From sequence record PZ179882.1: a stretch of 64,000 nucleotides of DNA; one strand, written 5' to 3'. This DNA comes from a phage. The notes under the pieces were generated by a model. It did no database searches, was not told the DNA's origin, and saw only the letters and a program-made list of their open reading frames with translations. The translations under genes were made by a program, and so were the position numbers. Positions 2,221 to 46,687 of the stretch are shown piece after piece (the first letter of the stretch is position 1; each line of letters begins with the position of its first letter).

Positions 2221-2472
2221 TCATTCCTTCTCTCTGATGATAATTACCTGATTTGGCTGCGCAGACTTTTTAGTTTCACCTGCAATTGACCAAATAAATG
2301 TAATAAACCAACCAATAATTGACCAGTTAAACAGCAAAGATGTGAAAAAGATTCCTACTGTCGATTTTGACCCACGCATCAAAGCAATAAACCATGGAAG
2401 CATGTATATAATAATAGCCAACACACCTGAAACTAAAACCATAAAAATTGAACCTGCTACTAAAGTTTCCAT
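2221..2472 (-). CDS. imm: superinfection immunity membrane protein Imm
   Basis: 83 aa, two hydrophobic segments, located between 42 and 43 as in T4. Confidence 0.8.
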   Translation of the reverse strand: METLVAGSIFMVLVSGVLAIIIYMLPWFIALMRGSKSTVGIFFTSLLFNWSIIGWFITFIWSIAGETKKSAQPNQVIIIREKE

Positions 2473-2479
2473 ATTTTCC

Positions 2480-2860
2480 TCACTTAGTCAAATTTTTTAC
2501 ACATGAATTATAAGAATTCACTACATACTCCATCGGAGCATTTTTACCAGTACGCCATTGGTAATTATTGGCCCAATTAGCCCAAAGCTCGGCGCAGTAG
2601 TTTTCAATTTTTTCTTCGCGTGTAATTACATCCGAATTACGATATGCTTGAGCAGATTCATCTGGACGAATAGCTTCGTCAAAATTCGCCTGCATTTGTT
2701 CGACTGTTTGCTTTGGAGCTTCTTTATAACACTTGACATTAGGATTATAAAATTTGCTTGAACAGTTTACAATTTTTCCTGCATCAGACTGATTTACTAC
2801 CGGTCCTTGAGCTACACAACCAGTAAGACCTAATGCAATAACCAAAATAGCGATTTTCAT
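2480..2860 (-). CDS. putative lipoprotein
   Basis: 126 aa, N-terminus MKIAILVIALGLTGC resembles a lipoprotein signal peptide with lipobox Cys. Confidence 0.5.
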   Translation of the reverse strand: MKIAILVIALGLTGCVAQGPVVNQSDAGKIVNCSSKFYNPNVKCYKEAPKQTVEQMQANFDEAIRPDESAQAYRNSDVITREEKIENYCAELWANWANNYQWRTGKNAPMEYVVNSYNSCVKNLTK

Positions 2861-2870
2861 AATAATTTCC

Positions 2871-3119
2871 TCAAATGCAAGTAGTAATTACTCCAGTAGT
2901 GCTTATGCAGGTATTACCCATTTGCACACCTAAAGATCCATTTGTATTCACATGAAGATTATCATCAATTTTAACTGATATTTTACCATTAGTGTGAATA
3001 ATAGTATTAGATTCAATCACAGGTTGAGTATCATTTTCAACACTAACAAATGGAACTGCTGCTAATGCAACTAAACAAACTGCTAAGCAACCCATAACAA
3101 TTTTCATTTTATTCTCCAA
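2871..3119 (-). CDS. small secreted or membrane protein
   Basis: 82 aa with hydrophobic N-terminal signal-like segment; directly downstream of an early promoter. Confidence 0.45.
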   Translation of the reverse strand: MENKMKIVMGCLAVCLVALAAVPFVSVENDTQPVIESNTIIHTNGKISVKIDDNLHVNTNGSLGVQMGNTCISTTGVITTCI

Positions 3120-3139
3120 ATCCGTATTAGTTGATAGTT

Positions 3140-3171
3140 GTATAGTACCATGGAAGAACAGTCTTGTAAAC
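3140..3171 (-). promoter_or_regulatory. T4-type early promoter
   Basis: Minus strand reads GTTTACA, 17-nt spacer, TACTAT; same architecture recurs upstream of many minus-strand genes. Confidence 0.55.
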
Positions 3172-3287
3172 AGTTTTGTGAAAATTTTTTAGGGAATTCT
3201 AAAGGTCCAGAATCATCTGTTTTTCATAAGTATAGATTTATATTACTTGTATGAAAAAGGGACCCGGAGGTCCCTAGATTTATTCTA

Positions 3288-27817: not shown

Positions 27818-27842
27818 TTTCTGTTCCTCCGTAGTTGATAGG

Positions 27843-27875
27843 GTAATAATACCACAGAGGAACAGTCTTGTAAAC
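27843..27875 (-). promoter_or_regulatory. T4-type early promoter
   Basis: Minus strand GTTTACA, 17 nt, TATTAT, then GGAGG and ATG. Confidence 0.55.
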
Positions 27876-27877
27876 CA

Positions 27878-28192
27878 CTAAAAGAAACTTCTTTCACAAT
27901 TTTTTCCACTGAACCATGCACTTACCGCTTTCTTGGTCTCAGGAGCAGTGTTATCCATAAACCATTCAAAGGCAGCCTTTTTATGATTCTGGAGGGCTTC
28001 TCGGGCTTTAATCTGCTCACGGTCTATTAACACTAACATATGAGCCTTTCTTGTCACCATGGACTTCTTATGATTTTTTGAATACTCCCAGTCATTTGTC
28101 CATCGCATTGTCGTTGCGAATTGAAATACTGCTTCTTTAATTTTAGTTTCGTAAATTTCACGAGCCTTTGAGTATAACATCACTACCTCCAT
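27878..28192 (-). CDS. hypothetical protein
   Basis: 104 aa ORF. Confidence 0.45.
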   Translation of the reverse strand: MEVVMLYSKAREIYETKIKEAVFQFATTMRWTNDWEYSKNHKKSMVTRKAHMLVLIDREQIKAREALQNHKKAAFEWFMDNTAPETKKAVSAWFSGKNCERSFF

Positions 28193-28982: not shown

Positions 28983-29965
28983 TTTAATAATACCGTTTCA
29001 GCAATTTCTTCCCAACCGTTTTTGTCGGTCATAATAAAGTCAGCAAGATAAAGAGCAGTACGCAGTGAAACATTGCGTAAACGATTAACATTAACTTTCA
29101 TCCATGATAATGCTTTATAAGTTTCTTCATCAGAAAGACCGCGCTTTTGCATCATGTCGGTTGAAAGAATAACATCTTCAACCCTGACCATAATTTCTTC
29201 ATTAGTGTGAACACCCAAATCTAAATAAACTGAGCGGGACACTAATGCTTGTAAATGTGGAGCAAGTTTAGTACCACGGTCTAATTCGCGGTCAATATCA
29301 ACGTTTGTGATAAAAACAATCGTTCCTTTAAATTCAAACTCACGCTCAATGCCTTTTTCTTCTAAGTAAGAAGATGCAGTGCTCCAGCAGACTTTACGGG
29401 TCTCTCCAGTGTCCAGAGCAGCTTTTAGAAGATTAAGAATGTCCATATCAGAGAAAACATCCACATCATCAATCAAAAGGACAGAATTCTCTTCACGATT
29501 ATTCCAAAGCTGCTCATAAAGACCAATACCAGAGATTTTACCATTAATGCTTTTATATTCAATGTATCCATTATCATTTGCTTTATTTAAAGCTTTATCT
29601 AAAGAATACGTTTTACCAATACCTGCTGCGCCAGAGATAATTAATGAACGAATATTTCCATTAATAATACCATTCGTCATCATTCCCATAACATTAAATC
29701 TTTTATTAATGCGGGTTTTCATATCTTCATATGATTCTTTAACTTCTTCAACTTTTACACCATCATATGAAATATCTGATTTGTAAACCCAAACACCGCG
29801 ACGTTTACCGTCAATTTCAACAAAAACTTTACCATCTCCTTGTGCATCTACCGGAGCATTATCTGGGAACCATTCGCCTAAGAGCTCAAAAGTTCCAGAG
29901 ATTTCTTTACCGAAGTAGATACCCTTATTGATAGTTACAGTTTTCATTTTATTCTCCAATTTCAC
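28979..29965 (-). CDS. P-loop NTPase
   Basis: 328 aa; Walker A ISGAAGIGKT and Walker B-like VLLIDDVD. Confidence 0.55.
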   Translation of the reverse strand: MKLENKMKTVTINKGIYFGKEISGTFELLGEWFPDNAPVDAQGDGKVFVEIDGKRRGVWVYKSDISYDGVKVEEVKESYEDMKTRINKRFNVMGMMTNGIINGNIRSLIISGAAGIGKTYSLDKALNKANDNGYIEYKSINGKISGIGLYEQLWNNREENSVLLIDDVDVFSDMDILNLLKAALDTGETRKVCWSTASSYLEEKGIEREFEFKGTIVFITNVDIDRELDRGTKLAPHLQALVSRSVYLDLGVHTNEEIMVRVEDVILSTDMMQKRGLSDEETYKALSWMKVNVNRLRNVSLRTALYLADFIMTDKNGWEEIAETVLLK

Positions 29966-29979
29966 ATTTGTTTTGATAG

Positions 29980-30280: not shown

Positions 30281-30495
30281 TGATTCTTCTCCAAATAAGT
30301 TTCGATAATTTTCTGGGCAAGATAAACCGCGTTATCTTCAGTTGCGTCTTCTAAGAAACTTTCAAAACACTCTGAAATTTCTTCTGTATCAATCAACTTT
30401 TTTACTTCAATTGGTGTAATTTTCATTTTGTTTTTCCGTTTAAGTGTTTGTTTTGATAGTTGTATAGTACCATAAAGCTTTATGCTTGTAAACAA
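30277..30495 (-). CDS. hypothetical protein
   Basis: 72 aa acidic protein. Confidence 0.4.
   Translation of the reverse strand: MFTSIKLYGTIQLSKQTLKRKNKMKITPIEVKKLIDTEEISECFESFLEDATEDNAVYLAQKIIETYLEKNQ
30460..30493 (-). promoter_or_regulatory. T4-type early promoter
   Basis: Minus strand GTTTACA, 17 nt, TACTAT. Confidence 0.5.
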
Positions 30496-30510
30496 TTTTG
30501 TGAAAAATTT

Positions 30511-44648: not shown

Positions 44649-44912
44649 TTATTTCATATTATTGAAATATTCTTCTGCGATTTCGTCGTTATCATGGTAA
44701 ACTTTAGAAGACAGTTTAACATAACCTTCTGCTGTGAACATATTAATCACAACTTTTACAGTATACCACTGACCGTCTTCATTACCCATTACTGCGTAAG
44801 TTTCAAACATCGGATGATCAGGACCGATAACTTTAATATCATTCACTGTACGACCGAAATCTTCTGAAACGCATTTCATAAAGAAGTTGAACAGTTCGCC
44901 GTAATTATCCAT
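44649..44912 (-). CDS. hypothetical protein
   Basis: Start set to the internal Met (MDNYGELF) preceded by GGAGAA, because the upstream part of the ORF overlaps the promoter. Confidence 0.4.
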   Translation of the reverse strand: MDNYGELFNFFMKCVSEDFGRTVNDIKVIGPDHPMFETYAVMGNEDGQWYTVKVVINMFTAEGYVKLSSKVYHDNDEIAEEYFNNMK

Positions 44913-44953
44913 TTCATTCTCCAAGTTGTTTTCTGTATCAGTAGTTGATAGTT

Positions 44954-44984
44954 GTATAGTACCATGGAAGAACAGAGATGTAAA
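44954..44984 (-). promoter_or_regulatory. T4-type early promoter (near-identical copy of the one at 3140-3171)
   Basis: Minus strand GTTTACA, 17 nt, TACTAT; the surrounding 60 bp nearly repeat 3128-3196. Confidence 0.55.
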
Positions 44985-45107
44985 CAGTTTTGTGAAAAAA
45001 TTTTTAGGGAATTCTAGGGCAGGGATGGGCAATTAAAGGATAGGATAATATATTATAAAGGGTATAAACTAAATGATGCCTAGAGAGGTCCAGAAAGGCC
45101 TAGATAC

Positions 45108-45133
45108 CAAAAAGCCCTATCATTTAGATAGGG
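45108..45133 (-). terminator. intrinsic terminator
   Basis: Plus strand ccaaaaagccctatcatttagataggg; minus strand gives hairpin plus CUUUUUGG. Confidence 0.55.
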
Positions 45134-45141
45134 ATTTAAAA

Positions 45142-45705: not shown

Positions 45706-45797
45706 TTAAAATCCTTGAAATAATTTATCGGTTGGTTATTAATTATTTATTACTTTGTTACTATCCGTAACAGCGTTATCCGAGTGATTCAAACTAA

Positions 45798-45827
45798 AAA
45801 GCCCCAACCTTTCGGTCGGGGCTAAGA
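45798..45827 (-). terminator. intrinsic terminator (GAAA-loop hairpin plus U-tract), copy 1
   Basis: Plus strand aaaaagccccaacctttcggtcggggct; the minus-strand RNA forms a 10-bp stem with GAAA loop followed by UUUUU. Identical 33-bp element at 46349-46381. Confidence 0.65.
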
Positions 45828-46342: not shown

Positions 46343-46350
46343 TATTTATA
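46343..46350 (-). promoter_or_regulatory. late promoter (TATAAATA)
   Basis: Plus strand tatttata about 40 nt upstream of the ip-like gene start. Confidence 0.5.
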
Positions 46351-46351
46351 C

Positions 46352-46381
46352 CAAAAAGCCCCAACCTTTCGGTCGGGGCTA
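46352..46381 (-). terminator. intrinsic terminator, copy 2 (identical to 45798-45827)
   Basis: Same 33-bp hairpin plus U-tract element. Confidence 0.65.
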
Positions 46382-46687
46382 AGCCTTGCGGCAACCTTGT
46401 CGGGGTTCCACCTGCTAAGGCAAGTGTTTGTACGAAACGCCGGGATTCGAACCCGGTTATTAAGTAGTTGACGCTACTCAATATTTTTAAAAGGCCATAT
46501 CTCGACCATATCCGAACGTTCCGTCAAAAACGCTACTCGGCTTACGGCAAAGATATTTCCTCGAATCGATAATTCGGTGCGCCGTTTCTGCTGTGATAGT
46601 AAAGAGCCAGAACACAGTAAAACTGTGGGAGGAAACTATACTCCAGGGAACATCAGTCCGACGACTTACCGGTAGCGACCCGGTTTC
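46381..46687 (-). ncRNA. candidate structured non-coding RNA region (tRNA-like T-arm; possible stable RNA)
   Basis: About 300 nt with no ORF of 60 aa or more on the minus strand. Contains CCGGGTTCGAATCCCGG (T-arm-like), a possible acceptor pairing CGGAACG/CGTTTCG, several hairpins, and ends at a strong terminator. Confidence 0.35.

Follow-up and report, generated by a model that had tools for sequence, protein, structure and literature searches.

Why should two short promoter sequences, lying 42 kb apart in one phage genome, be nearly the same letter for letter, even in the spacer between their -35 and -10 elements? This question is raised by a window of 64,000 nucleotides from sequence record PZ179882.1 (the window is the whole stretch of DNA analysed here). 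A preliminary description had reported a near-identical repeat at 3128-3196 and 44941-45010 with a handful of differences, and had read both copies as minus-strand early promoters. It had also suggested that the shared spacer points to selection, and that the copies are substrates for homologous recombination that could delete or invert the 42 kb between them. The sequence of the window is that of a T4-like phage (Tequatrovirus), and Megablast searches with both regions returned more than 500 Tequatrovirus records at 90–100% identity. According to the T4 annotation, the first copy (copy A) is located between the end of the DNA polymerase gene 43 and imm.1, and the second (copy B) just upstream of e.8. 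The features of the two loci are as follows.

3128..3201, minus strand: copy A, core of the early promoter cassette, from alignment and consensus scan.
3171-3166, minus strand: GTTTAC of copy A, with the -35 hexamer TTTACA at 3170-3165, from the consensus scan.
3164-3148, minus strand: 17-nt spacer of copy A, including the TG of the extended -10 at 3150-3149.
3147-3142, minus strand: -10 element TACTAT of copy A, followed next by the conserved start-site region ACAACTATCAAC.
~3176-3195, minus strand: A/T UP-like tract of copy A.
3099..3127, minus strand: 5' leader of A, with the Shine-Dalgarno sequence GGAGAA at 3117-3112 and the ATG at 3107-3105; gapped alignment to 44903-44941.
3258..3275, minus strand: intrinsic-terminator hairpin upstream of A, AGGGACC-TCCG-GGTCCCT and a T run.
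2871..3107, minus strand: first ORF after promoter A, 78 aa, with a hydrophobic N-terminus.
2480-2860, minus strand: imm.1 homologue (DUF5481), second after promoter A.
2221-2472, minus strand: imm, after the imm.1 homologue.
44942..45016, minus strand: copy B, the same cassette core, from alignment and consensus scan.
44984-44979, minus strand: -35 hexamer TTTACA of copy B (GTTTACA at 44985-44979), with the -10 TACTAT at 44961-44956 and TG before it.
44903..44941, minus strand: 5' leader of B, with a Shine-Dalgarno sequence and the ATG of the e.8 homologue at 44912-44910.
44649..44912, minus strand: e.8 homologue, first ORF after promoter B, 87 aa.
45115..45133, minus strand: intrinsic-terminator hairpin ~130 nt upstream of B, CCCTATC-TAAAT-GATAGGG and a T run.

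Both cassettes are built in the same order, i.e., terminator hairpin, A/T UP-like tract, GTTTACA, 17-nt spacer, TGG-TACTAT, CTATCAAC, leader, Shine-Dalgarno sequence and ATG. The consensus scan returned TTTACA-17-TACTAT with a TG extended -10 for A and B alike, and the A/T UP-like tract directly upstream of the -35 reads AAAAAATTTTCACAAAA in A and AAAAATTTTTTCACAAAA in B. The ATG follows 35–45 nt beyond the -10 with GGAGAA before it in both copies, and the ORFs lie on the early-transcribed strand. The hairpin at 3258..3275, which ends gene 43 ~85 nt upstream of promoter A, is the stem-loop component of the cassette. In addition, the orthologous A and B sites of fPS-65 and fPS-90 are annotated as 'predicted early promoter', each with an annotated terminator upstream. 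Every sequence-level feature of a T4-type early promoter is found in A and B, and by this sequence evidence they are T4-type early promoters on the minus strand, as had been proposed.

T4 early promoters have been described as 'uber' UP/-35/TGn/-10 sigma-70 promoters (Hinton 2010, PMC2988021), and published work shows that they carry consensus information beyond the hexamers. A and B resemble them in the GTTTAC at -36 to -31, the 17-nt spacer, the TGn, the TAnnnT -10, the upstream A/T tract, and the placement ahead of early ORFs in the early-transcribed strand; both sites exist in T4 itself. There is no essential difference, A and B being just the most similar pair in the window. The two copies also belong to a published cassette class, PeSL (promoter-early stem-loop), in which a terminator stem-loop, an AT-rich tract, an early promoter, a Shine-Dalgarno sequence and a start codon follow each other (PMC2839356; PMC4122927). 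A and B match both this layout and the PST/T4 PeSL consensus TTTACW-N17-TAYWAT (Arbiol et al. 2010, PMC2839356; Comeau et al. 2014, PMC4122927), and a terminator-like hairpin stands beside the promoter at each of them (3275-3258; 45133-45115). That is, the pair is already known in kind, as T4-type early promoters of the PeSL class in known places, and is not a new element.

From the T4 literature, we infer that unmodified host sigma-70 RNA polymerase would transcribe from both promoters during the initial minutes of infection. Copy A would restart transcription past the gene 43 terminator into the small ORF, imm.1 and imm, and copy B would restart it past its own terminator into e.8 and the genes below e.8. 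Unlike this activity and its timing, the anatomy, the family membership and the conservation across the genus are seen directly. Actually, both copies are present in T4, T2, RB32, pSs-1, PhiZZ30, e11/2, Lutter, Shfl2, ECO07P5 and fPS-65. Their neighbours vary among relatives: three alternative first ORFs occur after A (imm.1, an MKIVMGC ORF and an MKNIQ ORF), and T4 has rnaC/rnaD upstream of B, where protein ORFs are found in the window and in other phages. The Pfam scan of the downstream proteins gave imm.1 (DUF5481) as the sole match, which has no bearing on the repeat, and no match for the 78-aa first ORF after promoter A (2871..3107).

The surroundings of promoter B contain another repeat, which is ~40 nt long, contains a terminator (AAAAAGCCCCAACCTTTCGGTCGGGGCT...) and occurs in three copies in the window (45100-45139, 45787-45826 and 46344-46383). 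The copies at 45787-45826 and 46344-46383 are 93% identical, and the copy spacing is 557–687 bp. These repeats bracket the ORFs just upstream of promoter B, the place of rnaC and rnaD in T4; for an ORF homologous to those upstream of B, the RB32 record states 'flanked by 34 bp imperfect direct repeat'.

How far does the likeness of A and B go? In the local alignment, core A (3128-3201) and core B (44942-45016) share 70 of ~74 positions, which confirms a near-identical repeat with few differences. The identity is carried by exact blocks of 34 nt (A 3128-3161, B 44942-44975), 20 nt (A 3165-3184, B 44979-44998) and 16 nt (A 3186-3201, B 45001-45016). The differences consist of one mismatch cluster, TCT at 3162-3164 versus AGA at 44976-44978 on the plus strand, i.e., adjacent spacer bases beside the -35, and a 1-nt phase shift within the A/T tract. 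When gaps are allowed, the likeness reaches the leader, the Shine-Dalgarno sequence and the start codon (3099-3201 versus 44903-45016).

We have evaluated chance with a pattern of the shared flanks and a free 18-nt spacer, searched in the window and in 100 shuffles. It matches A, B and a third cassette, C, which share one orientation and are its only sites in the window; the 100 shuffles contain none. In register, 54 of 58 gapless positions match between A and B, compared with 30.2 expected when a profile is made from the remaining 12 early promoters (P ~3.5e-13), and the identity extends beyond the short consensus elements. Over the same 58 positions, A/B is the closest promoter pair, while the next-best pair has 44 matches and the median pair 31. 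The similarity of A and B is far above chance.

Just outside the cores, the 10-mer AGGTCCAGAA is found directly after core A (3203-3212) and ~70 nt past core B (45086-45095). The extra B segment between (45017-45085) has CTAG at both edges and is kept in all B loci examined. Copy B may be copy A plus a 70-nt insertion, or the match may be due to chance, the 10-mer being too short to decide. In the A/T tract of locus B (~44999-45005), set against L019 (T4), L020 (T2), L021 and L022 (PhiZZ30), most relatives carry another 10–11 nt, CTTTTTAAAAA, a near-tandem duplication, which is absent from the window, ECO07P5 and two IMG/VR genomes. Because it does not have these extra 10–11 nt, copy B of the window is closer to A than the B of T4 is.

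Is the spacer shared because the whole promoter family requires it? A scan of the minus strand of the window with GTTTAC-N18-TAnnnT has revealed ~14 plausible early promoters, including two further ones that matter for the comparison.

30455..30506, minus strand: copy C, a third cassette, identical to A/B on the UP/-35 side and on the -10/start-site side, with the unrelated spacer AGCATAAAGCTTTATGG.
27832..27894, minus strand: promoter D, a paralogous early promoter whose GTTTAC has its G at 27875; A and D are 83% identical in the spacer, which reads AAGACTGTTCCTCTGTGG in D.

Of the blocks on the two sides of the spacer, TTTTCACAAARYTGTTTAC is common to five of the promoters and TAYTATWMMMCTATCAAC to about ten. 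The spacer itself is not shared across the 14: mean pairwise spacer identity is 0.40, with A/B and A/D (27875) each at 0.83. Its 3' third (TGTGG/ATGG) is kept family-wide, while its centre is not conserved. We have also observed that the leader, Shine-Dalgarno sequence and first codons after A (3097-3132) are 83% identical to those after promoter 30013 (29937-29972), and that in T4, T2, pSs-1 and PhiZZ30 a C-type promoter carries an A-like leader before the gene that in the window stands downstream of 30013. From such sequences, leaders too appear to be shuffled as modules.

The relatives are more informative about the origin of the likeness. The comparison covers locus A in 16 copies and locus B in 13; its sample of ~20 genomes was chosen by hand from more than 500. 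A scan of IMG/VR with the free-spacer pattern gave 14 loci, and the comparison was then extended to GenBank phage records. Locus B is fairly uniform, with the spacer ATCCCTGTTCTTCCATGG and variants at three or four bases beside the -35. Locus A has three classes of spacer.

Locus A, class I: AAGACTGTTCTTCCATGG, in the window, T4, RB32 and others.
Locus A, class II: AAGAC[TC]GTTCCTCTGTGG, in T2, PhiZZ30, pSs-1 and Lutter; equal to the spacer of paralogue D.
Locus A, class III: ATCCC[TC]GTTCTTC..., in e11/2, CT01, ECO07P5, Shfl2 and two IMG/VR genomes; equal to the spacer of B.

Across 16 genomes, these classes combine freely with four types of upstream flank and three first ORFs, and therefore the recombination joints lie inside the cassette of ~80 nt. 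Some alleles go beyond the spacer. In fPS-65, where 81 nt of A and B are identical, locus B has an A-type spacer and A/T tract. In RB14, locus A has a B-type spacer and the entire B leader, joined at the ATG to imm.1. Each of these two alleles comes from one assembly, and both surfaced in the junction searches described below. Locus A of T2 (L020:400-600) and of PhiZZ30 (L022:430-640) has a D-type spacer and the whole D leader, joined exactly at the ATG; the first ORF after gene 43 is in these phages a different gene, MKNIQTNFI..., RB51ORF048.

On the basis of these comparisons, it is quite probable that A and B are paralogous T-even early-promoter cassettes that resemble each other beyond the family consensus because they share ancestry and keep exchanging short tracts. 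Their identity most likely reflects ectopic gene conversion and not selection on the spacer, since multi-nucleotide alleles equal paralogous sequences and the tracts end at the start codon. Alleles of this kind are best explained by conversion, and less well by spacer selection or independent mutation. The chimeric and homogenised alleles in natural genomes bear out the suggestion that the copies serve as substrates for homologous recombination. The exchanged tracts would be ~10 to 100 nt long and may reach the start codon. Unlike the alleles, which are directly observed, the mechanism is our proposal: it would be non-crossover homologous recombination, i.e., ectopic gene conversion, during recombination-driven replication.

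The number of independent ectopic events is probably small, at least three to four by a count that is not rigorous, because a chimeric allele that already exists can spread by ordinary allelic recombination. Selection for particular spacers, through promoter strength or the response to Alt-modified polymerase, could favour recurrent alleles. A broader statement seems to us somewhat better than an even bet, namely that distant paralogous early promoters of Tequatrovirus evolve in concert by short-tract ectopic conversion, in both directions and without crossovers. The direction would be A to B in fPS-65, B to A in RB14, e11/2, CT01 and Shfl2, and D to A in T2, pSs-1 and Lutter, with tracts that range from a few spacer bases up to the whole promoter and leader, ending at the start codon.

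Could the likeness have been maintained without any copying? Purifying selection might keep the whole promoter variant, including the spacer, through DNA shape, a phage or host regulator, or the Alt-modified RNA polymerase. This would agree with the conserved information that T4 early promoters carry outside the hexamers, with the different Alt responses of some T4 early promoters that have identical core elements, and with the family-wide conservation of the 3' third of the spacer. However, the central spacer varies among the 14 promoters, viable natural phages carry three different spacers at locus A, and locus B varies beside the -35. Moreover, the variant alleles equal paralogous promoters, whole leaders included, which selection at a single site would not predict. 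We thus regard this explanation as unlikely. As the spacers of the family are on average 40% identical, locus A has three alleles and no RNA fold is significant (see below), the earlier suggestion that the shared spacer reflects selection is unsupported. Selection beyond the hexamers does stand for T4 early promoters generally, where the UP tract, TGn and start-site region are kept family-wide, in line with published work, but it does not hold for the spacer.

A special form of selection would act on RNA. The shared spacer might form the 5' arm of a hairpin that masks the Shine-Dalgarno sequence in read-through transcripts, and be kept for translational control. The minimum-energy fold of A and B indeed pairs TTCTTCC with GGAGAA. 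For each of the 14 promoters, we have folded the minus-strand RNA that spans GTTTAC to the start codon and compared it with 200 dinucleotide shuffles. Eight of the 14 have a strong hairpin (z <= -2.8) and a ninth has a weaker one (z ~-2.0), which would speak for such a role in the family; but A, B and C fold no better than shuffled sequence (z = +0.67, -0.25 and -0.46, respectively). In addition, the chimeras of pSs-1 and Lutter join the class II spacer to a leader that is not complementary to it. Overall, the RNA-structure explanation is rejected for A/B in view of the lack of a significant fold, though it holds for many neighbouring promoters, and we consider it very improbable as the reason for the shared spacer.

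The hairpins of the other promoters deserve a description of their own. The strong ones (z from -2.9 to -5.9) belong to the promoters whose GTTTAC begins with G at 27875, 33268, 38258, 40872, 49659, 49957, 30013 and 44648, and the weaker one (z ~-2.0) to promoter 24900. In their layout, the -35/-10 spacer supplies the 5' arm and the loop contains the -10; the 3' arm falls just downstream of the -10 or on the Shine-Dalgarno sequence. At 27875, 38258 (the regB promoter) and 40872 (denV), the 3' arm covers the Shine-Dalgarno sequence, and therefore the ribosome site is predicted to be hidden in read-through from upstream and exposed in transcripts from the local promoter. Sequestration of the Shine-Dalgarno sequence is known for e, soc, 49 and I-TevI; the window hairpins resemble these cases, with the difference that early promoters are involved here. 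They also resemble the PeSL class of RB49 with a stem-loop overlapping the -10, and the ipII and ipIII promoters of T4 have a palindrome around the -10. A T2 promoter (L020:45673) is apparently chimeric, with a spacer of the window-49957 type and a downstream block of the T4 L019:47440 type; it loses the complementarity between spacer and downstream block that is present in both parents.

Does the pair matter instead as a substrate for large rearrangement, that is, for deletion or inversion of the 42 kb between? The exact blocks of 34 and 20 nt inside a 74-nt repeat would offer the homology, short homologies suffice for T4 recombination, and in RB49 and phi1 mini-circles arise from PeSL pairs separated by a few kb. 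However, A, B and C all have one orientation, and no copy of the cassette was found on the opposite strand of the window with up to three mismatches. Inversion is excluded, because A and B are direct repeats. As to deletion, the interval holds the T4 genes 43, regA, 62, 44, 45, 46, 47, 55, nrdD, regB, denV, e and others. We have built synthetic junctions for the deletion (A-left|core|B-right) and the circle (B-left|core|A-right) and searched them against 50,697 phage records. About 530 related records match the halves, and none covers at least 80% of a deletion or circle junction. Short-tract conversion is what the genomes display in place of the proposed deletion.

Such an absence of crossover products among sequenced phages would be expected, because essential genes would be lost or the head capacity exceeded. 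A reciprocal crossover between A and B would delete or duplicate ~42 kb with essential replication genes and hence go unrecovered; T4 packages DNA by the headful, and a duplication of 42 kb would exceed the headful capacity. The large-rearrangement reading is thus largely refuted for viable genomes, and there is little chance that the importance of the pair lies there. The weakest explanation, namely a recent duplication, a transfer private to the window genome or an assembly artefact, which high identity alone would suggest, is hardly credible and is refuted by the presence of both loci, in the same place and orientation, in T4, T2, RB32 and every relative examined.

Ectopic conversion between A and B can be compared with what has been described for related cassettes. 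To account for indels and mini-circles, the PeSL papers invoke homologous recombination from one cassette to another, and they put the homology required by T4 recombination below 50 bp (Singer 1982, cited in PMC2839356). The A/B loci share with these cases the replacement of ORFs between close relatives, after A (three ORFs) and before B, as well as the recombination joints, for which the support at A/B is comparative (chimeric and homogenised alleles). The difference is that in the published events, apart from mini-circles, ORFs are inserted, deleted or swapped between cassettes that lie near each other, whereas A and B stand 42 kb apart across essential genes and appear to convert promoter and leader without rearrangement. 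Early-promoter/stem-loop repeats that flank the T-even IP loci have likewise been proposed to shuffle adjacent genes (Repoila et al. 1994, as reported in PMC2839356). They too are T4-type early promoters with AT-rich stem-loops, while A and B are without a palindrome around the -10 and are located outside the IP loci. Our literature search found no description of promoter-to-promoter conversion between T4 early promoters, and the term 'gene conversion' is absent from Comeau 2014 (PMC4122927). The addition made here would be a small extension of a known mechanism, namely that cassettes 42 kb apart seem to exchange short tracts without rearrangement.

The value of the pair as a discovery is small, and it is modest for the population picture. 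A regulatory repeat of 74 nt that exchanges across 42 kb of essential genes would illustrate how little homology T4 recombination needs, and tract exchange would show why promoter sequences in T4-like phages look 'too similar'. The natural chimeras offer a ready series of spacer and leader swaps for dissecting, in promoters that are very strong, what sets strength and the response to Alt-modified polymerase. If the concerted evolution of distant early promoters is true, the promoter set of these phages would be an exchanging gene family, in which UP tract, spacer and leader are reshuffled as modules.
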